Source: Candidatus Calidihabitans tengchongensis
Lineage (GTDB): Bacteria; Sysuimicrobiota; Sysuimicrobiia; Sysuimicrobiales; Kaftiobacteriaceae
Reading direction: 5' to 3'
Length of the DNA stretch: 64,000 nt
NCBI GenBank assembly: GCA_031459615.1
Contig: JAVKIE010000009.1
Span: forward strand, 8,291 to 72,290
Positions 14,953 to 26,590 of the stretch are shown here, in pieces. Made by a program: the position numbers and the translations under genes. Below the pieces are notes generated by a model. It was given only the letters and a program-made list of their open reading frames with translations, searched no databases and was not told where the DNA came from. Every line of letters starts with the position of its first letter. The first letter of the stretch is position 1.

Positions 14953-16119
14953 ATGCGCCTGGGCACCGTCTCCGCCGCCGCCGTCCTGGTGCTGGCGCTG
15001 GCGGGCCCGCTGGCCCCGCCGGCCCCGGCGTCGGCGTCGGCTCACGTGGTCCGGCCGGGCGAGACCCTGTACCGGATCGCCCTGCGCTACGGCGTGCCCG
15101 TGGACGCCCTGGCGGCGGCCAACGGGATCGCCGACCCCGCGCGCATCCGCGCCGGCCAGGTCCTGCGCATCCCGGCGGCCGGCGCCCGCCCGGTGCGGCC
15201 GTCTGCGGCCCCGCGCATTGCCCCCCCATCCGTCCAGACCTCTGCCCGCGGGCCGCGCGCCGACCTGGCCTCCGTTCAGGTCCGCCGCATCAGCCTGCGC
15301 TACACCGTCGGCCGCGGGGACACGCTGTACGGCATTGCCCGCCGGTTCGGCGTCACAGTCCACGCCCTGCGTGGCGCCAACGGATTGCGGTCGGACCTGA
15401 TCCACCCCGGCCAGAGGCTGGTGGTCCCCGGCGCCCGCGTCGTCGTGCGCATTCCTCCGCCCGGCCCGACCGTGCGCCTGCGCCTGCCGGTCCCCCAGCC
15501 CGCGCCCGCCCCGCAGATCCCTGACCTGGACACCGGCGATGAGATCAGCGCGCCCCGTCCCGTCCGCGTGCGCCGGGGCCCGGCGTCGTATTTCACCACC
15601 CTGGCCGTCGCCGCGGCTCAGACCCCGCTGCAGGTGGTCGGTCGCCGGGACGAGTGGTACGAGGTGCGCCTGCCCGACGACACCACCGGCTGGATCCGCG
15701 CCGCCGACCTGACCCCGCCGCCACCCATCCCCGCCTCTCCCCAGCCCGCCGCGGCGGTGGTCGTCCGGGAGGCGTTGCAGTACGTGGGCACCCGGTACGT
15801 CTGGGGAGGCGCGTCGGCAGGGGGGCTGGACTGCTCGGGGTTCGTCTACCTGGTCTTCTCGGCGTTCGCGCCCGAGCTGGCCCGCCTGCGCTCCTTTGAC
15901 TACTTCCGCCTGGGCGTCCCGGTGCCCCCGGGCCAGCTGCGGCCGGGCGACCTGGTCTTCTTCACCACCTACGCCCCCGGTGCGTCCCACGTCGGGATCT
16001 ACCTGGGCGACCGCCGCTTCATCCACGCCTCCAGCAGCGCCCGCCAGGTCACCGTCTCGTCCCTGGATGAGCCGTACTACGCCGCCCGCTACGTGGGCGC
16101 CCGGCGGCTGGCTCCCTGA
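14953..16119 (+). CDS. Second secreted peptidoglycan hydrolase, with two LysM domains, an SH3b-like domain and an NlpC/P60 domain.
   Basis: Signal peptide; two LysM repeats; WYEV...GWI SH3-like segment; LDCSGFV...SHVGIY catalytic core. Confidence 0.85.
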   Translation: MRLGTVSAAAVLVLALAGPLAPPAPASASAHVVRPGETLYRIALRYGVPVDALAAANGIADPARIRAGQVLRIPAAGARPVRPSAAPRIAPPSVQTSARGPRADLASVQVRRISLRYTVGRGDTLYGIARRFGVTVHALRGANGLRSDLIHPGQRLVVPGARVVVRIPPPGPTVRLRLPVPQPAPAPQIPDLDTGDEISAPRPVRVRRGPASYFTTLAVAAAQTPLQVVGRRDEWYEVRLPDDTTGWIRAADLTPPPPIPASPQPAAAVVVREALQYVGTRYVWGGASAGGLDCSGFVYLVFSAFAPELARLRSFDYFRLGVPVPPGQLRPGDLVFFTTYAPGASHVGIYLGDRRFIHASSSARQVTVSSLDEPYYAARYVGARRLAP

Positions 16120-16214
16120 CCTGCGCTGGACTGGCCCGCGCGCCGGTGCCAGGGTTTGACAGTCTTTGCACAGAACAAGGTCAGCAGGACAGTCCGACGC
16201 TTCTGGGAGCCCCG

Positions 16215-17621
16215 ATGCCCAGGACCACCGCCCGACGGCGCGCCCGGAGACCCCTGCGCGGCCTCGCGCGCCCGTCCCGCTCTGCACCCCCCACCCGGGT
16301 CATCATCCTGGGGGCGGGGGGACGCGACTTCCACAACTTCAACGTCGTGTACCGGGATCGGCCGGAGTACCGGGTGGTGGCGTTCACGGCCACCCAGATC
16401 CCCGAGATCGAGAACCGCATCTACCCTCCCGACCTGGCCGGGCCCCTGTACCCGGAGGGGATCCCCATCTACCCCGAGGAGGAGCTGGCCGACCTCATCC
16501 GCCGCCTGCGGGCGGACCAGGTGGTGTTTGCCTACAGCGACGTCTCCCACGAGCACGTGATGCACGTCAGCTCCCTGGCGCTGGCCGCCGGCGCCAGCGT
16601 GGTCCTGCTGGGCCCCCGGGCCACCATGCTGACGGCGCGGGTGCCGGTGGTGAGCATCGGCGCCGTGCGCACCGGCGCCGGCAAGAGCCCCGCCACTCGC
16701 CGGGTGGCCCAGATCCTGCGGGGCCTGGGGCTGCGGGTGGCCGTCGTCCGCCACCCGATGGCCTACGGCGACCTGGCCCGCCAGCGGGTGCAGCGGTTCG
16801 CCACCCTGGAGGACCTGGACCGGATCCCCGTGACCCTCGAGGAGCGGGAGGAATACGAGCCGCACCTGGCGGCGGGGACGGTGGTGTACGCCGGCGTGGA
16901 TTACCGGGAGGTCATCCGCCAGGCGCAGCGGGAGGCCCACGTGCTGGTGTGGGACGGCGGCAACAACGACTTCCCTTTCGTGCGCTCGGGCCTGCACATC
17001 GTGCTGGCCGATCCCCACCGGCCCGGCCACGAGCTCACCTACCACCCGGGGGAGACCAACCTGCGGATGGCCCAGGTGGTGGTCATCACCAAGGTGGACA
17101 CCGCCCGCCCCGACGACGTGGCGGCCGTGCGCGCCAACGTCGCGCGGGTGAATCCCCAGGCGGTGGTCATCGAGGCGGCCCTGCCCCTGGAGGTGGACCG
17201 TCCCGACCTGCTGGCGGGGCGGCGGGCGGTGGTGGTGGAGGACGGCCCCACCCTCACCCACGGCGAGATGTCCTACGGCGCGGGCGTGCTGGCCGCCCGG
17301 GCCCACGGCGCCACCTTGGTGGACCCGCGCCCGTATGCCGTGGGCTCCATCCGCGAGGTGTTCGCCCGCTACCCCCACCTGGGCGCGGTCCTGCCGGCCA
17401 TGGGCTACAGCCCGGCCCAGATTCGGGAACTGGAGCAGACCCTCGCCGCCGCCGACTGCGACGTGGTGGTCATCGGCACGCCCGTGGACCTGCGGCGGGT
17501 CATCGCCCTGCGGCATCCGGCGGTGCGGGTGCGCTACGAACTGCGGGAGCGGACCCGGCCCACCCTGGAGGAGATCCTGACCCGGTGGGTGCGGGAGGGC
17601 GCGCGGGCGGGGGGACAGTAG
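16215..17621 (+). CDS. DUF1611-type Rossmann/P-loop-like protein, of the family annotated as CPGS-like or DgcN-like.
   Basis: VIILGAGGRDFHNFN and SIGAVRTGAGKS motifs. The family assignment is from memory of DUF1611 architecture and is the least certain call in this operon. Confidence 0.45.
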   Translation: MPRTTARRRARRPLRGLARPSRSAPPTRVIILGAGGRDFHNFNVVYRDRPEYRVVAFTATQIPEIENRIYPPDLAGPLYPEGIPIYPEEELADLIRRLRADQVVFAYSDVSHEHVMHVSSLALAAGASVVLLGPRATMLTARVPVVSIGAVRTGAGKSPATRRVAQILRGLGLRVAVVRHPMAYGDLARQRVQRFATLEDLDRIPVTLEEREEYEPHLAAGTVVYAGVDYREVIRQAQREAHVLVWDGGNNDFPFVRSGLHIVLADPHRPGHELTYHPGETNLRMAQVVVITKVDTARPDDVAAVRANVARVNPQAVVIEAALPLEVDRPDLLAGRRAVVVEDGPTLTHGEMSYGAGVLAARAHGATLVDPRPYAVGSIREVFARYPHLGAVLPAMGYSPAQIRELEQTLAAADCDVVVIGTPVDLRRVIALRHPAVRVRYELRERTRPTLEEILTRWVREGARAGGQ

Positions 17622-17635
17622 CGGCGGAGGCGACC

Positions 17636-18562
17636 GTGGACCTGCGGGGCCGCGACCTGGTCAGCATGGACGACCTCTCCCCCGAGGAGGTGGCCTGGAT
17701 CCTCGACACCGCGGCCGACCTCAAGCGCCGGCGCGGGTCGCCCGACCACCCGCGGCCTCTGGCGGGCAAGGTGCTGGCCATGATCTTCGAAAAGCCCTCC
17801 CTGCGCACGCGGGTCACGTTCGAGGTGGCCATGCTGGAGCTGGGCGGGCACGCCGTGTACCTGGGCCCCCAGGACATCCAGATGGGGGTCCGGGAGAGCG
17901 TGCCCGACGTGGCCCGCAACCTCAGCCGCTGGGTGCACGGGATCATGGCCCGCACCTTCAGCCACCGCACGGTGGAGGTGCTGGCCGAACACGCCGCGGT
18001 GCCCGTGATCAACGGCCTGTCGGACCGGGAGCACCCCTGCCAGACCCTGGGAGACCTGCTCACCATCCGGGAGCGGTTCGGCCGTCTGGACGGCCTGCGG
18101 GTGGCCTGGGTGGGCGACGGCAACAACGTGTGCCACTCGCTGCTGCTGGGCGCCGCCAAGGTGGGCCTGTCGGTGACGGTGGCCACCCCGCCCGCGTATG
18201 CGCCCGACCCCGCCATCGTCTCCCGGGCCCGGCAGATCGCCACCCGGACGGGAGCGCGCCTGGAGGTGGGCACCGATCCCCAGGCGGCCGTCCGCGGGGC
18301 CGACGTGATCTATACCGACGTCTGGGTGAGCATGGGCCAGGAGGACCAGCGGGCGGGTAAGCTCGCTGCCTTCGCCGGCTACCAGGTGAACGCGGCCCTG
18401 GTGGCGCTGGCGGCTTCTCACGGGGTGGTCATGCACTGCCTGCCGGCCCACCGGGGGGAGGAGATCACCGACGACGTGCTGGACGGCCCCCGCTCGGTGG
18501 TCCTGGACCAGGCCGAAAACCGCCTGCACGCCCAGAAGGCGCTGCTGGCCCTGGTGCTGTGA
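17636..18562 (+). CDS. argF: Ornithine carbamoyltransferase.
   Basis: SLRTR, HPCQ, GDGNNV and HCLP motifs are all present. The GTG start has an upstream GGAGG. Confidence 0.85.
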   Translation: MDLRGRDLVSMDDLSPEEVAWILDTAADLKRRRGSPDHPRPLAGKVLAMIFEKPSLRTRVTFEVAMLELGGHAVYLGPQDIQMGVRESVPDVARNLSRWVHGIMARTFSHRTVEVLAEHAAVPVINGLSDREHPCQTLGDLLTIRERFGRLDGLRVAWVGDGNNVCHSLLLGAAKVGLSVTVATPPAYAPDPAIVSRARQIATRTGARLEVGTDPQAAVRGADVIYTDVWVSMGQEDQRAGKLAAFAGYQVNAALVALAASHGVVMHCLPAHRGEEITDDVLDGPRSVVLDQAENRLHAQKALLALVL

Positions 18563-18572
18563 CGGAGGACCC

Positions 18573-19385
18573 GTGCCGGAGATCCGCCCGCAGGACATCA
18601 TCGACATCCTCATCGTCACCCTGCTGGTCTACCAGCTGCTGCTGCTGATCCGGGGCACCCGGGCGGTGCAGCTGGTCATCGGGCTGGGAATTCTGGTGGC
18701 GGCCTACGCCGTCAGCCGGGCCCTGGGCCTGTACACGCTCCAGTCGGTCCTCCAGTACCTGGGCGTGGTGATCCCCATCGCCCTGCTGGTCATCTTCCAG
18801 CCCGAGCTGCGGCGCATGCTGGAGCAGCTCGGACGCGGCGGCGTGCTCATCAGCGGGCTCACACCCCACGCCCTGGGGCGGGAGGAGCGCATCCGGCTGG
18901 CCAACGACCTGGCCCGGGCCGCGCGCATCCTGGGGCTGCGCAAGATCGGCGCGCTGATCGTCCTGGAGCGGCAGACGGGGCTGGAGGACTTCATCGAGAC
19001 CGGCGTGCGGGTGGATGCGGTGGTCACCGTGCAGCTGCTCATCACCCTGTTCTTCCCCAATTCCCCGCTGCACGACGGGGCGGCCATCATCCGCGGCAAC
19101 CGGGTGGTGGCCGCCGGCTGCCTGCTGCCCCTGTCGGAGAACCCGTCCCTGGCCCGCCTCCTGGGCACGCGCCACCGGGCGGGGGTCGGGATCACCGAGC
19201 AGACCGACGCGGTGAGCCTGATCGTGTCCGAGGAGACCGGGACGATCAGCCTGGCCCGGGAGGGCGAGCTGATCCGGGGACTGTCGGAGGAACAGGTGAA
19301 GGCCGCCCTGCTGGAACTGACGGCGCCCGGCCCGGCGGCCGCCGTGGGCCCGTGGCGGTGGTGGAGGACGATCCGCCGCTCATGA
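18573..19385 (+). CDS. cdaA: Diadenylate cyclase (c-di-AMP synthase) with three N-terminal TM helices and a DAC domain.
   Basis: DAC-domain motifs DGA and RHR (within GTRHRAGVG) are present. The architecture and the downstream cdaR-glmM synteny match cdaA. Confidence 0.9.
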   Translation: MPEIRPQDIIDILIVTLLVYQLLLLIRGTRAVQLVIGLGILVAAYAVSRALGLYTLQSVLQYLGVVIPIALLVIFQPELRRMLEQLGRGGVLISGLTPHALGREERIRLANDLARAARILGLRKIGALIVLERQTGLEDFIETGVRVDAVVTVQLLITLFFPNSPLHDGAAIIRGNRVVAAGCLLPLSENPSLARLLGTRHRAGVGITEQTDAVSLIVSEETGTISLAREGELIRGLSEEQVKAALLELTAPGPAAAVGPWRWWRTIRRS

Positions 19386-20041
19386 AACTGCGCCGCCCTC
19401 TGCTCAGCGAGCAGCAGTTGCTCCTGCTCCTGTCGTTTCTCATCGCGGTGACCTCCTGGTATTATGTGGTGTCCACCCGCCCGCCCCGCGGCCCGCAGGT
19501 CACCTCCAAGGTGGTGGCCGTGATCCCCCGGATCGAGGGCGAGCCGGCCTACGGGTACAGCATGCTGGGCGTCCGGGTCACCCCGCCCACGGTCGTCGTG
19601 ACCGGCGTGGCCGAGCAGCTGGCCGCCCTGGACGCCGTGCGCACCGAGGCCGTGGACGTGACCGGGGCCACCCGGGATGTGGTGCGGGAGGTGGCGGTGG
19701 ACGCGCCGTCGGGAATGGCCCGCCCGGCCCGCGTGCGGGTGGCGGTGCAGGTGGTGCCGGCCATCGCGGCCCGGGTCGTCCCCGGCGTGCGGGTCCGGGT
19801 GCAGAACGTCCCGCCGGGGGTGGTGGCGCGCGTGGAGCCGTCCACCATCGCGGTGCAGGTGCAGGGGCCGGTGGCGGTGGTCAGCCGGCTCCGGCCCGAC
19901 GACCTGGTGGCGGTGGTGGACGGGGCCGACCTGTCCGAGGGGCGCCGGCGGGTGCGGCCCCAGGTGGTGGCGCCCGAGCAGGTGACGGTGGTCGACCTGC
20001 GGCCGGACATGGTGGTGGTGGTCGTCCGCCGGGGAGGATAG
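19382..20041 (+). CDS. cdaR: YbbR-domain regulator of CdaA.
   Basis: ATGA overlap with the cdaA stop. N-terminal TM helix followed by beta-rich YbbR-like repeats. The position between cdaA and glmM is conserved synteny. Confidence 0.7.
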   Translation: MKLRRPLLSEQQLLLLLSFLIAVTSWYYVVSTRPPRGPQVTSKVVAVIPRIEGEPAYGYSMLGVRVTPPTVVVTGVAEQLAALDAVRTEAVDVTGATRDVVREVAVDAPSGMARPARVRVAVQVVPAIAARVVPGVRVRVQNVPPGVVARVEPSTIAVQVQGPVAVVSRLRPDDLVAVVDGADLSEGRRRVRPQVVAPEQVTVVDLRPDMVVVVVRRGG

Positions 20042-20100
20042 CAGGTGCACGGGAGCATGTGCGCGGGCGGGCTGCAGGCGCCCGACCGGTGAGGGGCGCG

Positions 20101-21459
20101 GTGGGCCGTCTGTTCGGAACCGACGGCGTGCGCGGCGTCGCCAACGTGGACCTGACGCCCGAGCTGGCCCTGCGCCTGGGGCGGGCGGCGGCCCACCTGC
20201 TGAGTCCCGCCGGCGGCGGGCAGTTCCTGGTGGGCCGCGACACCCGCCTCAGCGGGCCGATGCTGGAGGCGGCGCTGGTGGCCGCCATCTGCTCGGCCGG
20301 CGGCCAGGCCCTGCGGGGCGGGATCCTGCCCACGCCTGCCGTGGCGTACCTCACCCGGCGGCTGGGGGCGACCGCCGGGGTGGTCATTTCGGCCTCCCAC
20401 AACCCGGTGGAGGACAACGGCATCAAGTTCTTCGGCCGCGACGGCTTCAAGCTGCCCGACGCCGTCGAGGACGCCATCGAGGCCCTGCTGGACTCGCCGG
20501 ACCTGCGGCGGGCCGTGGGCCTGCAGGTCGGGCGCGCCGAGGACATCCCCGAAGCCGCCGACCTCTACGTGGACCACCTGGCGGCCCTGGCCGTCGCCCC
20601 GGCGGCCGGGCTGCGGGTGGTGGTGGACTGCGCTCACGGCGCGGCCTGCCGCACCGTCCCTGCCCTGTGGGAGGCGCTGGGCGCCACGGTGATTCCCATC
20701 AACGACACGCCCGACGGCGCGCGGATCAATGTCCGCTGCGGCTCCACCCACCCCGATGTGGTGGCCCAGGCGGTGCGGGACCGCCGGGCGGACGTGGGAT
20801 TCGCCCACGACGGGGACGCCGACCGGGTCATCGCGGTGGACGAGACCGGCGCCGTGGTGGACGGGGACGGCCTGCTGGCCATTTGCGCCCTCCACCTGCA
20901 CGCCCGGGGACGGCTGCCCGGCGCGCGGGTGGTGGCCACCGTGATGTCCAACCTGGGTCTGGAACGGGCCCTGCGCCGGGCGGGAATCACCCTGGAGCGC
21001 ACCCGGGTCGGTGACCGCTACGTGCTGGAGCGGATGCGCCAGGTCGGGGCGACGGTGGGCGGCGAGCAGAGCGGGCACATCATCTTCCTGGACCACGCCA
21101 CGACCGGCGACGGCGCCCTGACGGCGGTGCAGGTGGTGAACGTGATGCTGCAGACCGGCAAACGTCTGTCGGAACTGGCCGCGGTGGTGGAGCGGCTGCC
21201 CCAGGTCCTGGTCAACGTGGCCGTGGCCGACCGCGCGGCTCTGGACACCCGCCCGGCCATCGCGCGCGCGGTGGCCGATGCGCAGCGGGCGCTGGGCGAG
21301 CGGGGGCGCGTGCTGGTGCGCGCCTCGGGCACCGAGCCCCTGGTGCGGATCATGGTGGAGGCGGAGGACGCCGCCCAGGCCGCGTCCCTGGCCGACCATC
21401 TGGCGGACGTGGTGGCCCGCGAGCTGGGCGGCCGCCGCCTGGAGGCCCCACGGGGTTAG
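20101..21459 (+). CDS. glmM: Phosphoglucosamine mutase.
   Basis: GRLFGTDGVRG and SASHNPVEDNGIKFF are present. Possible alternative start at 20059. Confidence 0.9.
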   Translation: MGRLFGTDGVRGVANVDLTPELALRLGRAAAHLLSPAGGGQFLVGRDTRLSGPMLEAALVAAICSAGGQALRGGILPTPAVAYLTRRLGATAGVVISASHNPVEDNGIKFFGRDGFKLPDAVEDAIEALLDSPDLRRAVGLQVGRAEDIPEAADLYVDHLAALAVAPAAGLRVVVDCAHGAACRTVPALWEALGATVIPINDTPDGARINVRCGSTHPDVVAQAVRDRRADVGFAHDGDADRVIAVDETGAVVDGDGLLAICALHLHARGRLPGARVVATVMSNLGLERALRRAGITLERTRVGDRYVLERMRQVGATVGGEQSGHIIFLDHATTGDGALTAVQVVNVMLQTGKRLSELAAVVERLPQVLVNVAVADRAALDTRPAIARAVADAQRALGERGRVLVRASGTEPLVRIMVEAEDAAQAASLADHLADVVARELGGRRLEAPRG

Positions 21460-21465
21460 CGCCCG

Positions 21466-22272
21466 GTGGCATCGGCCGCGCATCCTCCCGGCCGCGTTCC
21501 CGCCGACCGCGAGCCGCCCGCCTCCGAACTGCTGGGGGTTCGGGTCCACCACGTCACCCTGGACCAGGCGGTGGAGCGGGTGGCCGCCCTGATCGCCTCC
21601 GGCGGCCCGCATCAGGTGGTGACGGTCAACGGGGCGATGCTGGTGGCCGCCGCTCGGGATCCGGCCGTGCGCTCGATCCTGTCGCAGGCGTCGCTGGTGG
21701 TGCCCGACGGGGTCGGCGTGCTGGTGGCGGCGCGGATTCTGGGCCGCCCCCCCTTCGTGCGGGTGCCGGGCGTGGAGCTGGCCGAGCGTCTGTGCGCGGA
21801 GGCGGCCGCCGCCGGCTGGCGCGTGTTCCTGCTGGGGGCGGCGCCGGGGGTCGCCGACGACGCCGCGGAGGCGCTGCGCCGCCGCTATCCGGGCCTGCAG
21901 GTTGCCGGCGTCCACCACGGCTACTTCTCCGACGACGCTCCCGTCCTGGTCCAGATCCGGGCGGCCCGCCCGCACGTGCTGCTGGTCGCCCTGGGGTTTC
22001 CGCGCCAGGAGATGTGGATCGCCCGGCACCGGGCGGCGCTCGGCGTGCCGGTGAGCATGGGCGTGGGGGGGACGCTGGATGTGCTGGCGGGACGCGTGCG
22101 CCGCGCGCCGGCGTGGATGCAGCGGGCCGGGCTGGAGTGGGCGTACCGGATCGCCCGGGAGCCCCGGCGCCGGTGGCGGACGGCGGCGGCGCTCCCGCAC
22201 CTGATGGTGCTGGCGCTGAAGGCGCGGCTGCGCCGGGAGAGGGGAAAAGACCTCAATGGACAGGGATGCTAA
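21466..22272 (+). CDS. WecB/TagA/CpsF-family (GT26) glycosyltransferase, an N-acetylmannosaminyltransferase-like enzyme.
   Basis: LLGVRVHHVTLDQAV ... VVPDGVGVL ... LLGAAPGV ... GFPRQEMWI are family motifs. Confidence 0.8.
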   Translation: MASAAHPPGRVPADREPPASELLGVRVHHVTLDQAVERVAALIASGGPHQVVTVNGAMLVAAARDPAVRSILSQASLVVPDGVGVLVAARILGRPPFVRVPGVELAERLCAEAAAAGWRVFLLGAAPGVADDAAEALRRRYPGLQVAGVHHGYFSDDAPVLVQIRAARPHVLLVALGFPRQEMWIARHRAALGVPVSMGVGGTLDVLAGRVRRAPAWMQRAGLEWAYRIAREPRRRWRTAAALPHLMVLALKARLRRERGKDLNGQGC

Positions 22273-22344
22273 AGTGTGGTCTACTGAGAGGGCCCGCCGG
22301 CACCCGTGCGGGCGGGGGAGGTGAGAGCAAGCCGCAGGTCAGGT

Positions 22345-22610
22345 GCCGCAGCGCCAGGCCCCTGGCGCGGAAGGCGGGTTGTGCGGGGCGGACCGGTGGA
22401 CCAGACGCCCTCGTCCGCAGTCTCACGCCAGGGGTGACGAGGGAGGGGATCTCGGACGGCCCGCCCGGTCATCGGCGTGATGATCCGGGCGGTGACCGCA
22501 TCGGCGGGTGACCCTAGGCCGGTGGTCCCGGCCTGCACCCCTCCGACGCCCGTCGGAGGCAAGGCAGCCGCCAAACCCCGGAGGCAACTCCGGCCCAGAA
22601 GGCTGCCAGG
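22345..22610 (+). ncRNA. Candidate glmS ribozyme (GlcN6P-responsive self-cleaving leader). The boundaries are approximate.
   Basis: It sits in the 456-bp leader of glmS. It has A/GCGCCAG with a local hairpin (ccagg cccc tgg), then GACGAGG and an AUCGGCGGGUGACC segment resembling the conserved core CGGCGGAUGCC. It is longer than the canonical ribozyme, which is a caveat. Confidence 0.5.
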
Positions 22611-22728
22611 ACCAGGTCGCACACACGAATGGATCCCGCGGCGCCGTCGGCGCGCCGCGCGGGTCTTGTGCGGCCGGAGCTGACATCCGGTCTGTCCATT
22701 CGGGGAACAGTGTCCGCAGGAGGGCATC

Positions 22729-24648
22729 ATGTGCGGCATCATGGGATACATCGGCCGGCAGAGCGCGCTGCCGGTCCTGCTGGACGGTTTGAAACGGCTG
22801 GAGTACCGTGGCTACGATTCGGCGGGCGTGGCGGTCCTGGCCGACGGCCGCATCGAGGTGCGCAAGACGGCGGGCAAGCTCAGCCGCCTGGAGGAGATCA
22901 CCCGGCAGCCTCCTCTCCCCGAGGGAACGGTGGGTATCGGCCACACCCGCTGGGCCACCCACGGCCTGCCCACCGACGCCAACGCGCATCCCCACACCGA
23001 CTGTCGCGGGCGGGTGGTGGTGATCCACAACGGGATCATTGAGAACTTCCTCCCCCTCAGGGAGGAGCTGCAGGCGCGGGGCCACACCTTCCGGTCGGAC
23101 ACCGACACCGAGGTGCTGGCCCACCTGATCGAGGAAGAACTGGCGGGGCCGCCCGGGCGGGAGGGCGACGACCCGGCGGGAAGCGGCGCGGCGCCGCCGG
23201 GCACCCGCCAGGCGGTGGTGGACCGCCGCCTCCGCCTTCCCCTGGACGAGGCCGTCCGCCGGGCGGTGGCGCGCACCCGGGGAGCGTACGCCATCGTGGT
23301 GATGAGCGCCGACGCCCCCGACCAGATTGTGGCCGTCCGGCAGATCAGCCCGCTGATCGTGGGGATCGGCCAGGGCGAGACCGTCCTGGCGTCGGACATC
23401 CCGGCGCTGCTGCCCTACACCCGGGACGTGCTGGTGATCGAGGACGGCGAGCTGGCCGTGCTGACGGCGGGCGGCGTGCGCATCCAGCGCCTGGACGGCA
23501 CCCCGGTGCGGCGGCAGCCGGTGCACATCACCTGGGACGCGCAGATGGCCGAGCGGGGAGGCTACCCCCACTTCATGCTCAAGGAGATCTTCGAGCAGCC
23601 GCGGGCCCTGCAGGAGACCATGATGGGCCGGCTGGACGTCCCCGGGGTGGTGGAGCTGGACGGGGTGGGGTACACCGACGCCTTCGTCCGGGACCTGCGC
23701 GCGGTCTGGATCACGGCGTGCGGCACGGCCTACCACGCCGGCCTGGTGGGGCGGTGGCTGATCGAGCACTGGGCGCGGATCCCCGCCGAGCCGGAGCTGG
23801 CCTCCGAACTGCGGTACCGCGATCCGCTCATCGGTCCCCACAGCCTGGCGGTGGCCATCAGCCAGTCGGGAGAGACGGCCGACACCCTGGCGGCGGTGCG
23901 GGAGCTGCGCCGGCGGGGCGCGCGGGTGGTGGCCGTCACCAACGTGGTCGGCAGCACCCTCAGCCGCGAGGCCGACGACGTCCTGTACATCCGGGCCGGC
24001 CCGGAAATCGCCGTGGCCAGCAGCAAGGCATACGTCTCCATGCTGGTGGCTCTGCAGATGCTGGCGCTGGACCTGTCCCTGCGCCGCGGGGTCCTGGCGC
24101 GGGAAGAGGCGCTGGCGCTGGTGGCCGCCATGAAGGCGCTGCCCGCCCAGGCTCAGCAGGTGCTGGACCGGGCGCCGCAGGTGGAGGCGCTGGCCCGCCG
24201 GATCGCGGACCGAGAGCACGTCTTCTTCATCGGGCGGGGCCTGGACTACGCGGTGGCCCTGGAGGGCTCGCTGAAGCTCAAGGAGATCTCCTACGTGCAC
24301 TCCGAGGCTCTGGCCGCCGGCGAGCTCAAGCATGGCACCCTGGCCCTGGTGGCGCCGGGCGTGCCGGTGGTGGCCCTGGCGACCCAGCGGCACGTGTACG
24401 ACAAGACCCTGTCCAACATTGAGGAGGTCAAGGCGCGGGGCGGCGAGGTGATCGCGGTGGCCTACGATGACGACGGCGAGATCGACAAGCACGCCCACAC
24501 CGTGGTGCGGATCCCGCCGACCCGGGACGAGCTGGCGCCGGTGCTGGCCATCATCCCCCTGCAGCTGCTGGCCTACTACGTGGCCCGGGAACGGGGGAAC
24601 GACATCGACCAGCCGCGAAATCTCGCCAAGAGCGTGACCGTGGAGTGA
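22729..24648 (+). CDS. glmS: Glutamine--fructose-6-phosphate aminotransferase.
   Basis: MCGIMGYIG, the N-terminal nucleophile Cys2, followed by SIS domains. Confidence 0.95.
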
Positions 24649-24657
24649 GGAGGGCCC

Positions 24658-24819
24658 ATGATCGACGAGGAGCTGCTGAAGATCCTGGCCTGCCCGCTGG
24701 ACAAGGCGCCGGTGGAGCTGCGCGGGGACCGCATCGTCTGCACCCGTTGCGGGCGGCGGTACCCGATCCGCGACGGCATTCCGGTCATGCTGATTGACGA
24801 GGCGGAACTGCCTGGATGA
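24658..24819 (+). CDS. Trm112/UPF0434-like zinc-ribbon mini-protein.
   Basis: LACPLDKAPV ... CTRCGRRYPIRDGIPVML is the Trm112-like Cys4 ribbon. Confidence 0.6.
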   Translation: MIDEELLKILACPLDKAPVELRGDRIVCTRCGRRYPIRDGIPVMLIDEAELPG

Positions 24820-24875
24820 CCGCGGCGACCGGGGGTCCGGGCGGCGCGGGTCAGGGGAAAGCGGAAGGAGCGCCG

Positions 24876-25277
24876 ATGGTGGTCTGCGGCGTGGGCGTGG
24901 ACTTGGTGGAGGTCAGGCGCGTGGAGCGCGCCCTGGCCCGGTGGGGCGACGCGTTTGCGCGCCGGGTGTTCACCGCCGCCGAACTGGAGCGCGCCCGCGC
25001 GCCCCGCGCCCGCAGCATGCGCCTGGCGGCGCGGTTTGCCGCCAAGGAGGCGGTCATGAAAGCGCTGGGGTTGGGGTGGAGGACGATGGGGTGGCGGGAG
25101 ATTGAGATCCTCCATGATCCCCTGGGCAAGCCGGTGGTGGCCCTCCACGGACACGCCCGCGCCGCCGCCGACCGGCAGGGCGTGGCCCACGTGCTCGTCA
25201 GCCTCGCTCACACCCGCCACCTGGCCCTGGCCAGCGCGGTCGCCCTCGCCCCGCCCACCCCCGCCTCGATGCCGTAG
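24876..25277 (+). CDS. acpS: Holo-[acyl-carrier-protein] synthase.
   Basis: MVVCGVGVDLVEV...FAAKEAVMKALG. The ATG has an upstream GGAAGGAG. The track ORF starts earlier at 24816. Confidence 0.8.
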   Translation: MVVCGVGVDLVEVRRVERALARWGDAFARRVFTAAELERARAPRARSMRLAARFAAKEAVMKALGLGWRTMGWREIEILHDPLGKPVVALHGHARAAADRQGVAHVLVSLAHTRHLALASAVALAPPTPASMP

Positions 25278-25366
25278 GTCACGTCCCCTGTTGGAGTGAT
25301 CGCCCGATCAGGCGACGTGCCCACGACCTCCCTGCGCGCGAGTATATAGCTTATACGCTCCTGGCT

Positions 25367-25381
25367 CGGTGACTGTCACCG
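25367..25381. promoter_or_regulatory. 15-bp palindrome cGGTGACtGTCACCg (operator candidate), immediately downstream of the only TATATA box in the region at 25343-25348.
   Basis: Perfect 6-bp inverted repeat GGTGAC/GTCACC with a 1-nt spacer. Confidence 0.45.
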
Positions 25382-25453
25382 TGTCTTCCCCCGACCGGGG
25401 GACTTGTCGTTGCCCAGGGGGAGGTGGTGTTCTAAATGGTTGCCCCACGCTGA

Positions 25454-25468
25454 GGGTGACTGTCACCG
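25454..25468. promoter_or_regulatory. Second copy of the same 13/15-bp palindrome, gGGTGACtGTCACCg, 87 bp from the first.
   Basis: The core is identical to the site at 25368-25380. Confidence 0.45.
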
Positions 25469-25549
25469 CGGCGGGGCGGCAGGAGATTCCCGCGGGCGCA
25501 CCGAAAAACCTGGTAAACGTTTTCCACCGGCGGCGCGGGAGGGGAGACG

Positions 25550-26590
25550 GTGGCGACGATCCGGGACGTGGCCCGGCGGGCCGGGGTGTCGGTGGCCACC
25601 GTCTCCCGGGTGGTCAACCACAGCGCCCACCGGGTGAGCCCCCAGACCCGCCGGCGGGTCCTGGAGGCCGTCCGGGCCCTGGGCTACCAGGCGAACGTCA
25701 TCGCCCAGAGCCTGAAAAAGCGGGCCTCCCGCACCGTGGCCCTCATCGTCCCCGACATCAGCAACCCCTTTTTCCCGGCCATCGCCCGCGGCATTGAGGA
25801 CGTCGCCAGCCAGCACGGGTATGCGGTCCTTCTGTGCAACACCTACGAGGACCTCGCCCGGGAGCGCGCCTACCTGGACCTGCTGCGCAAGCGGTGGGTG
25901 GACGGGGTGATCTTTGCCACGGCCGGCACCAACACCGCGCACCTGCGGGCGCTGCGCCGCGAGGGCCGGCCGGTGGTCCTGGTGGCCCGCGACGTGGACG
26001 GGGTGCGCATCGACGCGGTCCTGGTGGACAACTACCACGGGGCCTACGAGGCCACCGCGCACCTGCTGCGGCTGGGCCACCGGCGCATCGCCCACATCGC
26101 CGGACCGGCGTCGGTCCGGGTGGCGCAGGAGCGGCGACGCGGCTACGAGCAGGCGCTTGCCGACGCGGGTCTGCCCCGCGATGGCGCCCTGGTCGGCGAG
26201 GGGGACTTCACCGCCGACGGCGGCCGGCGGGCGGTGGAGGCGTGGCTCCGGCGGCGAGCGGACATCACGGCCATCGTGGCCGCCAACGACCTCATGGCCA
26301 TCGGGGCCCTGGAGGTTCTGCGCGCGGCCGGCCGGCGGGTGCCCGAGGATGTGGCGGTGGTGGGATTTGACGACATCACGTTCGCCTCTCTGGTGTCGCC
26401 GGCTCTGACCACCGTGGCGCAGCCGAAGTACCGCATGGGCCAGCTGGCCATGCAGCGCCTGCTGGAGCTGATGGCCGGAGAGTCCCCGGCGGGCCGGCGC
26501 ATCGTCCTGGAGCCACAGCTGATCGTCCGGGATTCCTGCGGGGCTCGCCGGGCGGTGATCATCCCGCCCGGCGGGAGAACGCGGGCGTGA
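25550..26590 (+). CDS. LacI-family transcriptional regulator.
   Basis: N-terminal HTH ATIRDVARRAGVSVATVSRVVN followed by a periplasmic-binding-protein-like sugar-binding domain. Confidence 0.85.
   Translation: MATIRDVARRAGVSVATVSRVVNHSAHRVSPQTRRRVLEAVRALGYQANVIAQSLKKRASRTVALIVPDISNPFFPAIARGIEDVASQHGYAVLLCNTYEDLARERAYLDLLRKRWVDGVIFATAGTNTAHLRALRREGRPVVLVARDVDGVRIDAVLVDNYHGAYEATAHLLRLGHRRIAHIAGPASVRVAQERRRGYEQALADAGLPRDGALVGEGDFTADGGRRAVEAWLRRRADITAIVAANDLMAIGALEVLRAAGRRVPEDVAVVGFDDITFASLVSPALTTVAQPKYRMGQLAMQRLLELMAGESPAGRRIVLEPQLIVRDSCGARRAVIIPPGGRTRA

Follow-up and report, generated by a model that had tools for sequence, protein, structure and literature searches.

A candidate REP-type palindrome doublet between acpS and a LacI-led sugar operon in Candidatus Calidihabitans tengchongensis

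Introduction

The present work concerns two identical, perfect 13-bp palindromes housed in the 272-bp spacer between acpS and a LacI-family regulator gene of Candidatus Calidihabitans tengchongensis, within a 64,000-nucleotide stretch of contig JAVKIE010000009.1 (GenBank assembly GCA_031459615.1, positions 8,291 to 72,290) that is called here the window and has a G+C content of 72.5%. Upstream of the spacer lie cdaA, a YbbR-domain gene, a phosphoglucomutase-family (glmM-like) gene, a WecG-family glycosyltransferase gene, glmS, a Trm112-like open reading frame (ORF) and acpS, the stop codon of which is at 25277. On the other side, the LacI-family gene (25550-26590, GTG start at 25550) is followed by genes for a Zn-dependent dehydrogenase, a sugar ABC transporter, two AP_endonuc_2 (xylose-isomerase-like TIM barrel) proteins and a GFO/IDH/MocA oxidoreductase. 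The LacI-family protein is identical to one encoded on contig JAVKJB010000009 of assembly GCA_031459165.1.

An earlier note on this DNA had taken the palindromes, together with a TATATA box and a 16-bp CCCCCG/CGGGGG palindrome, for an architecture in which a repressor binds two phased operators around the transcription start of the LacI-family gene. On balance, we consider it probable that the pair is instead a doublet like those of repetitive extragenic palindromes (REPs), or of the hairpin-forming REP doublets called REPINs, and that it belongs to a class associated with REP-associated tyrosine transposases (RAYTs).

Results

The acpS-LacI spacer

The features of the spacer are given below with their positions in the window; loci fetched for comparison carry handles beginning with L.

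25294-25380, no strand assigned: first unit (unit 1) of the tandem 87-bp repeat, made up of hairpin A, an AT-rich box and a 13-bp palindrome, from the ungapped identity of units 1 and 2
25300-25315, no strand assigned: putative hairpin A of unit 1, TCGCC-CGATCA-GGCGA, from pairing over seven units
25343-25348, no strand assigned: AT-rich box of unit 1, TATATA (TATTAG in L002 and L086), from the alignment of carriers
25368-25380, no strand assigned: palindrome 1, GGTGACTGTCACC, candidate REP-type hairpin core; 13/13 conserved in L001, L002 and L086, and its core flanks the RAYT genes of L007, L087, L123, L209, L210 and L211
25381-25467, no strand assigned: unit 2 of the tandem 87-bp repeat, from unit homology and single-nucleotide polymorphisms (SNPs) relative to L001
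25387-25402, no strand assigned: putative hairpin A of unit 2, TCCCCC-GACC-GGGGGA, the 16-bp palindrome of the earlier note; position kept, sequence not, in L002 and L086
25430-25437, no strand assigned: TTCTAAAT, the AT-rich box that unit 2 carries 87 bp past that of unit 1
25455-25467, no strand assigned: palindrome 2, GGTGACTGTCACC, with the same central T as palindrome 1, from exact match and conservation
25479-25505, plus strand: bipartite promoter-like motif GCAGGAG-N16-CGAA of the LacI operon, outside the doublet, from orthologs
25511-25526, plus strand: canonical LacI-family operator TGGTAAACGTTTTCCA, outside the doublet, 24 nt before the GTG start

The two 13-mers are 87 bp apart from start to start, and each is extended by one G (GGTGACTGTCACC(G), 25368-25381 and 25455-25468). 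Given their central T, both have the same orientation and are thus direct repeats; their feet read CTCG/GAGG (CACG/CGCG on the reverse strand). The TATATA box sits within GTATATAGCTTATAC, which has 5-bp arms, the CCCCCG/CGGGGG palindrome within TTCCCCCGACCGGGGGA (25386-25402), and CGAAAAAC is found at 25502-25509. The 13-mers, TATATA and TTCCCCCGACCGGGGGA lie where the earlier note had placed them. Its description of TATATA as the only AT-rich hexamer is correct for 25000-26000, in which no other all-A/T hexamer occurs, but the window contains ten such hexamers and the spacer holds a second AT-rich box, exactly 87 bp past the first.

The pattern GGTGACNGTCACC, with at most one mismatch, has eight matches in the window against 0.39 expected from shuffles. 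The two exact matches are the 13-mers themselves, and the six one-mismatch matches all carry a G/C centre. The A/T-centred core GTGACWGTCAC (GTGACNGTCAC), in turn, does not occur in 355 kb of comparison loci that had been fetched for an unrelated reason.

Conservation among orthologous loci

Orthologous loci were fetched via the LacI protein, and L086 was added from a DNA pattern scan. The 13-mers are confined to the closest relatives, namely the near-identical L001 together with L002 and L086, whose LacI proteins are 91-91.5% identical; about 20 LacI orthologs with 61-79% identity lack the 13-mers and keep the canonical operator. Across the three carrier lineages both 13-mers are 13/13 identical (26/26 positions), while the 74-nt inter-palindrome spacer is 53% identical, the 60 nt upstream 42-52% and the third codon positions of the LacI gene 70-75%. 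By our own rough calculation, 26 unchanged positions out of 26 at a per-site identity of 53% correspond to p of roughly 7e-8 for one comparison. This conservation beside a drifting spacer shows strong purifying constraint on the 13-mers alone, and with the excess of matches in the window it bears out the expectation that they are not random.

The distance between the palindromes is 87, 86 and 86 bp in the three lineages, whereas that from palindrome 2 to the GCAGGAG motif is 10, 24 and 45 nt. With its mutual spacing fixed and its distance to the promoter variable, the doublet acts as an autonomous module placed upstream of a promoter-operator that was already there, and lies outside the architecture of that promoter. 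Such variation is incompatible with a fixed operator-promoter geometry, and the idea of two phased operators around the LacI transcription start has therefore to be given up, the LacI gene having a promoter-like motif and an operator of its own. The remaining elements likewise give that idea no support: TATATA is loosely conserved (TATTAG in L002 and L086), and the CCCCCG/CGGGGG sequence is not conserved in these two loci, although a weak hairpin at the same position is.

Two other candidate explanations were discarded. An inverton was rejected because the window, L001, L002 and L086 are all collinear and no recombinase domain was found among the genes called from glmS to the sugar operon. Small ORFs over the palindromes, such as that on the minus strand at 25308-25466, have no conserved counterpart in L002.

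The flanking DNA offers some observations in its own right. The segment from about 15550 to 25277 (L001 1-9728) has the Firmicutes-style order cdaA, YbbR-domain gene, glmM-like gene and, further on, glmS, in a metagenome-assembled genome (MAG) labelled Armatimonadota; after glmS come the Trm112-like ORF, of 53 amino acids, and acpS. In L003, an ortholog without the palindromes, an IS605 OrfB (TnpB) fragment at 170-532 lies about 1.5 kb upstream of the acpS-LacI junction.

The operator and promoter-like motif of the LacI operon

The LacI-type operator TGGTAAACGTTTTCCA is unique in the window (0.03 expected) and is retained in every examined ortholog with upstream sequence; it reads TGGTAA[A/T]CGTTTTCCA in most of them, with one or two changes in the most distant. 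A conserved operator at the regulator's own gene implies that the LacI-led sugar operon would be autoregulated. Upstream of it, by 3-10 nt, the bipartite motif GCAGGA[A/G]-N15/16-CGAA was found in 15 of the searched orthologous loci, with a gap of 15-16 nt save in L136 (19 nt); its position is shared by the window, L002-L006, L086 and L127-L136. It presumably represents the promoter of the LacI operon, with a transcription start predicted directly past CGAA (25502-25505). The motif has no sigma-70 consensus, and a scan of the region for sigma-70-like promoters returned no site; it may correspond to an extracytoplasmic function (ECF)-like or lineage-specific promoter type. Both the motif and the operator occur in orthologs with and without the palindromes.

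In L004, L127, L128, L129, L132 and L134 the ATG of the LacI gene overlaps the last bases of the operator (…CGTTTTCCATGGCT…) and no Shine-Dalgarno sequence is present, which points to leaderless starts, or starts with a short leader, among some members of the family. The window lineage has a 24-nt leader bearing GGAGGGGAG.

In this regard, the possibility that the 13-mers are atypical auxiliary operators of the adjacent LacI-family repressor, which the earlier note had also raised, appears highly improbable. The 13-mers are certainly palindromic and close upstream of a LacI-family gene, as LacI/GalR operators are, and in one Chloroflexota MAG a repeat family of roughly a dozen copies has two members 110-130 bp upstream of LacI paralogs. 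Unlike such operators, however, the 13-mers have an odd number of base pairs and no CG at the centre, and most orthologs do without them, about 20 lacking them and all keeping the CG-centred operator. The even-length dyad with a central CG, co-occurring with its regulator, is found at 25511-25526 instead. In addition, the first 40 residues of LacI, in the N-terminal DNA-binding region (Pfam residues 3-49), vary at only one or two positions among the three carrier lineages, to which this comparison refers. The remark that the half-site is not of LacI type, and that the sites may belong to another regulator, is in line with these findings. The interpretation in the earlier note is thereby borne out in part, the 13-mers being functional sites of a system other than the adjacent LacI, and the occurrence of their core beside RAYT genes elsewhere, described below, further contradicts the LacI assignment.

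The core palindrome in other genomes

One genome per species, for 185,579 species (GTDB), was scanned for two palindrome copies 60-90 nt apart, and at least 120 such stretches were obtained against fewer than one expected by our own rough estimate. Among the matches listed, G/C-centred copies in Streptomyces and other Actinomycetota resemble coding V-T-V-T repeats and were set aside, while A/T-centred copies form multi-copy, near-identical families within single MAGs of Chloroflexota (Dive96_bin3.112, MAG096), Acidobacteriota (MFD00032, MFD02979) and Planctomycetota. The same matches include single or arrayed ones in Bacteroidota, Leptospira and Actinomycetota, and Armatimonadota are represented once, by the ortholog L086; many copies are located at contig ends, as repeats are, and the sequence between the palindromes differs from one family to another.

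In other phyla, the core, usually with an A/T centre, has many extragenic copies, mostly as pairs 60-115 bp apart, as is known from REPINs and bacterial interspersed mosaic elements (BIMEs). Some families form long perfect hairpins, the fold of the single-stranded DNA (ssDNA) reaching a z of -15 in the Acidobacteriota family and of -4 to -6 in the Chloroflexota families. The pan-family consensus, A-G-GTGACAGTCAC-C-T, includes no universal tag; some of the copies from Chloroflexota read GTAG-GTGAC. Genes flanking the dispersed pairs are unrelated housekeeping genes (in L044, for instance, two pairs bracket a cysteine-synthase-like gene), and no recurrent protein of the kind that an insertion sequence (IS) carries as cargo was found beside these pairs. 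An apparent cluster of LacI proteins beside the pairs was dismissed, as it consisted mostly of ORFs reading through the repeat, with real downstream LacI paralogs only in L073 and L098. A phage origin was likewise rejected, with 1 match per pattern in 2.9 million viral contigs.

Several individual loci deserve mention. In Chloroflexota Dive96_bin3.112, two copies of one doublet family (L073 6174-6273 and L098 982-1081) lie 110-130 bp upstream of LacI paralogs that are 33-41% identical to the LacI of the window, a placement possibly due to chance, such regulators being many there. Acidobacteriota MAGs (L011, L013, L021, L027, L030, L032, L049, L065, L066, L119) carry elements of ~100 bp with perfect 34-nt inverted arms (GAATTTCGGTGACAGTCACCATAACTCCCAAATT…), in which the arms are conserved and the centre is wholly different between copies (ssDNA z -15). 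The palindrome also forms tandem arrays in a Leptospira MAG (L089 1244-1380, 31-bp period), where the array abuts a small ORF with a below-cutoff match to the antitoxin-like PF12910, and in an Actinomycetes MAG (L110 7062-7195, about 27-bp period). In an Acidimicrobiales MAG (L075 244-2605), 48 pattern matches recur with a 321-322-bp period, and this array looks like a long coding tandem repeat with V-T-V-T (GGTGACNGTCACC), unrelated to the REP class.

Association with RAYT genes

RAYTs (TnpA_REP; Pfam PF01797) are domesticated, 'REP element-mobilizing' transposases of the HUH/Y1 kind. As published, a single RAYT gene has its REPs on its flanks; most REPs form doublets of 71 or 110 bp in which the spacer is the less conserved part, and tandem clusters are found (PMC3116915, PMC5581495, PMC3733652). 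Examples are the E. coli REPs and BIMEs and the REPINs of Pseudomonas fluorescens SBW25 (PMC3116915, PMC3337134, PMC5581495, PMC3733652), and a conserved GTAG or CGTC tag at one hairpin foot is described in PMC3733652.

In L007, a 204-amino-acid ORF matches PF01797 (Y1_Tnp; 27.7 bits against a cut-off of 23) and is bracketed on both sides by arrays of AGGTGACWGTCACCTGGG. Its protein family gave 2273 matches at E <= 1e-5, several of which are named 'REP element-mobilizing transposase RayT' by the Joint Genome Institute (JGI), and an exhaustive search with the L007-type family returned 23,936 clusters at 50% identity. The related genes of L087 (Roseiflexus, 61% identity to the L007 protein) and L123 (Ignavibacteriota, 29%) adjoin the same palindrome, which in Roseiflexus forms an array with an 88-bp period beside the gene. 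Three further family members, L209 (66%), L210 (59%) and L211 (47%), were picked only for the length of the available contig and for divergence. In these, the core lies 5-100 bp from the start and the stop of the gene, usually as an inverted doublet such as AAGTGACAGTCACCTTGAAGGTGACTGTCACTT. In total, the core GTGACNGTCAC was present at 200 bp or less from the gene in 6/6 inspected RAYT loci (29-100% identity to L007). Moreover, the asymmetries of one palindrome are mirrored in its partner in L209 and L210, which fits a single-strand hairpin at the level of the doublet, unlike two independent dimer sites.

These comparisons demonstrate that the identical core serves as a dispersed, RAYT-associated repeat in five or more other phyla. 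In Chloroflexota and Ignavibacteriota, a single RAYT (PF01797) clade recurs together with the core GTGACWGTCAC; Planctomycetota showed weak RAYT-like matches, and dispersed core doublets were also seen in Acidobacteriota, Planctomycetota, Bacteroidota and Leptospira. The REPs described so far are usually lineage-specific, whereas here the same core is shared by several phyla.

These data also bear on a further explanation, according to which the 13-mers are the operator pair of a dimeric transcription factor other than LacI, which would bind double-stranded GGTGAC-N-GTCACC at two sites ~eight helical turns apart and either repress or loop an upstream promoter that uses the AT-rich boxes, or insulate the two operons. 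The perfect dyad symmetry, the exactness of both sites in three lineages at a nearly fixed spacing of 86-87 bp and the presence of an AT-rich box 19-25 bp upstream of each site, at matching positions, are what such a factor would be expected to leave; the low copy number in the window would suit a small regulon, and no RAYT has been found in the host phylum. However, the sole conserved regulator gene nearby is that of LacI, which has its own operator, the spacing to the LacI promoter-like motif varies and the scan for sigma-70-like promoters is empty. Above all, the identical core is a RAYT-associated repeat in at least five other phyla, a coincidence that would be unlikely, and full-text searches gave no description of such an operator. 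We therefore regard a dimeric factor as a possible but minor alternative.

By sequence alone, the closest known site is matS. The protein that binds it, MatP, is known from gamma-proteobacteria. In enterobacterial Ter macrodomains matS reads GTGAC[AG]N[TC]GTCAC, and its sites are single and dispersed, at about 1 per 49 kb in Ter (PMC3603311, citing Mercier 2008). It shares with the window palindromes the half-sites GTGAC/GTCAC and the 13-bp length, but has a 3-nt spacer where the window core has 1 nt, and the window sites are adjacent rather than dispersed. Literature text searches for the 11-mer, the 13-mer and a GTGAC/GTCAC operator returned only primers and matS, and the supplements of the survey of GTAG/CGTC REPs do not list the core.

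Tandem 87-bp units and exchange between them

The homology of the spacer extends beyond the 13-mers. The 74-nt non-palindromic parts of units 1 and 2 are identical, without gaps, at 32/74 positions in the window and at 36/74 in L001, the null being 20.8 +/- 3.8 (about 10,600 other offsets). Each unit consists of hairpin A (GC-rich, TCsCC-N4-6-GGsGA), an AT-rich box and a 13-mer. For hairpin A, 88.6% of the cells are paired over seven units and one pair covaries (G-C / C-G); this pairing is matched by 19 of 500 shuffles, and the hairpin is thus weakly supported.

Over 21,041 aligned bases, 17 differences separate the window from the near-identical strain L001, and five of them fall within 37 bp of the unit-2 spacer (25416-25452; L001 9867-9903). 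Four of the five (25432, 25437, 25442 and 25452) change unit 2 to the base found in unit 1 at -87, for which we estimate a chance of ~0.05. We read the cluster as patchy conversion, or template switching, between the units, probably anchored on the identical 13-mers. An origin in a diversity-generating or hypermutation process was dropped because four of the five SNPs equal the homologous base of unit 1. The changes at 25432 and 25437 jointly turn GTTCTAAAT into the palindrome GTTTTAAAC.

The units bring up one more explanation, a host RNA element independent of any transposase, in which the 13-mer and hairpin A would act at the 3' end of the glmS-trm112-acpS mRNA as a terminator, an attenuator or a block to exonucleases. 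Its location is suitable, 90 nt past the acpS stop codon and before the next promoter; a terminator-like call falls at 25383-25403, hairpin A keeps its place in most units, one of its changes being compensatory, and REPs are reported to stabilise mRNA and to terminate transcription (PMC3733652). A structural role, however, would allow compensatory changes, and yet the 13-mer is invariant. RNA folds of 25350-25549 were no better than shuffles on either strand (z -0.43 on the plus strand). The terminator-like calls were limited to the CCCCCG hairpin, whose sequence is not conserved in L002 and L086 and which has no U-tract, and to a site inside the LacI gene. In addition, an Rfam 15 scan of 24500-26500 produced no match, the best hits reaching 13-18 bits where the gathering scores are 34-59, at E > 1. 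An RNA element of this kind is, in our opinion, an improbable explanation of the locus.

Discussion

The reading of the window pair as a REP/REPIN-like doublet of the RAYT-associated class is based on the identity of its core with RAYT-associated repeats, the constraint on the 13-mers alone, their autonomy with respect to the LacI promoter and the tandem units with conversion between them. Among the known systems, REPs, REPINs and RAYTs are the closest in kind. As in those systems, the element is a short extragenic palindrome able to form a stem-loop, its core brackets RAYT genes (in six loci of other phyla), the copies are paired at distances of tens of bp and the palindromes are better conserved than the spacer (87/86/86 bp; 26/26 against 53%), tandem clusters occur and the element persists at an orthologous site. 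The doublet most likely entered between acpS and the LacI promoter in an ancestor of the three closely related lineages and would have been retained since.

A number of observations weigh against this interpretation. Tblastn detected no RAYT gene in the 64-kb window and none was traced in Armatimonadota, the homology searches returning only Chloroflexota-labelled proteins. Copies are few, with two in the window and none in about 100 kb of related Armatimonadota-labelled loci. The core of the window is a perfect palindrome of 13 bp, while known REPs are imperfect and span 20-40 bp, and the copies are direct, REPINs being typically inverted. No GTAG or CGTC tag accompanies the window copies. In ssDNA folds the doublet forms local hairpins or pairs palindrome 1 with palindrome 2, but the long hairpin predicted for it is weak (z between -1.4, the value for the window, and -2.8; families elsewhere have -4 to -15), with a flank complementarity of only 81% over 21 nt. 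Nor does a selfish-repeat model by itself account for purifying selection at a single orthologous locus.

In mechanism, the closest counterparts are the subterminal hairpins of IS200/IS605 elements and their transposase-less derivatives, the palindrome-associated transposable elements (PATEs). There, too, two hairpins would be ssDNA targets of an HUH/Y1 transposase and delimit a short mobile segment, and the L007-type RAYT family matches the same Pfam model. The window doublet is unlike them in that there is no transposase gene between or beside its hairpins, the left and right hairpins are identical and no cleavage or target motifs were identified at the doublet.

For the REP-type doublet we propose a model that borrows from the studied REP/RAYT and IS200/IS605 systems. 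Two tandem 87-bp units, with one GGTGACTGTCACC each, would constitute an element set between glmS-trm112-acpS and the promoter/operator of the LacI operon. On single-stranded DNA, or in the transcript, the 13-mer would form a short hairpin to be recognised by a RAYT-type HUH/Y1 protein. Such recognition would hold the 13-mer constant beside a spacer that drifts and undergoes patchy conversion between the units. We infer by the same analogy that a RAYT, or another hairpin-binding protein, may act on the window copies. In RNA form, the hairpins may also have an incidental effect on the 3' end of the acpS mRNA, be it in stability, termination or insulation.

A bolder version of this model, which we consider rather unlikely, is that the window doublet is an exapted REPIN in a host lineage that has at most a few other copies and may be without an active RAYT. 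Its 13-mers would have become binding sites under host selection, for a protein derived from a RAYT or for another protein that binds hairpins or dyads, and would serve as a boundary or regulatory module between the genes for cell-wall precursors (glmS-acpS) and the sugar-utilisation operon, while one RAYT clade and an 11-13-bp core (GTGACWGTCAC) would have remained coupled across at least five phyla. A REP core apparently conserved to such a degree across phyla has no description in the literature searched.

Taken together, our findings remove a false lead, since the palindromes are not the operators of the sugar-operon repressor, whose own operator and promoter-like motif have been located. 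They also point to a class of REP that we did not find described by sequence, in which one short core occurs at RAYT loci and in dispersed doublets of Chloroflexota, Ignavibacteriota, Acidobacteriota, Planctomycetota, Bacteroidota and probably Armatimonadota. Within this class, a low-copy doublet retained at an orthologous site, in which constraint is confined to the 13-mers and the units convert each other, amounts to a natural experiment, and the window doublet bears on whether REPINs are kept up by the transposase, by the host or by both.

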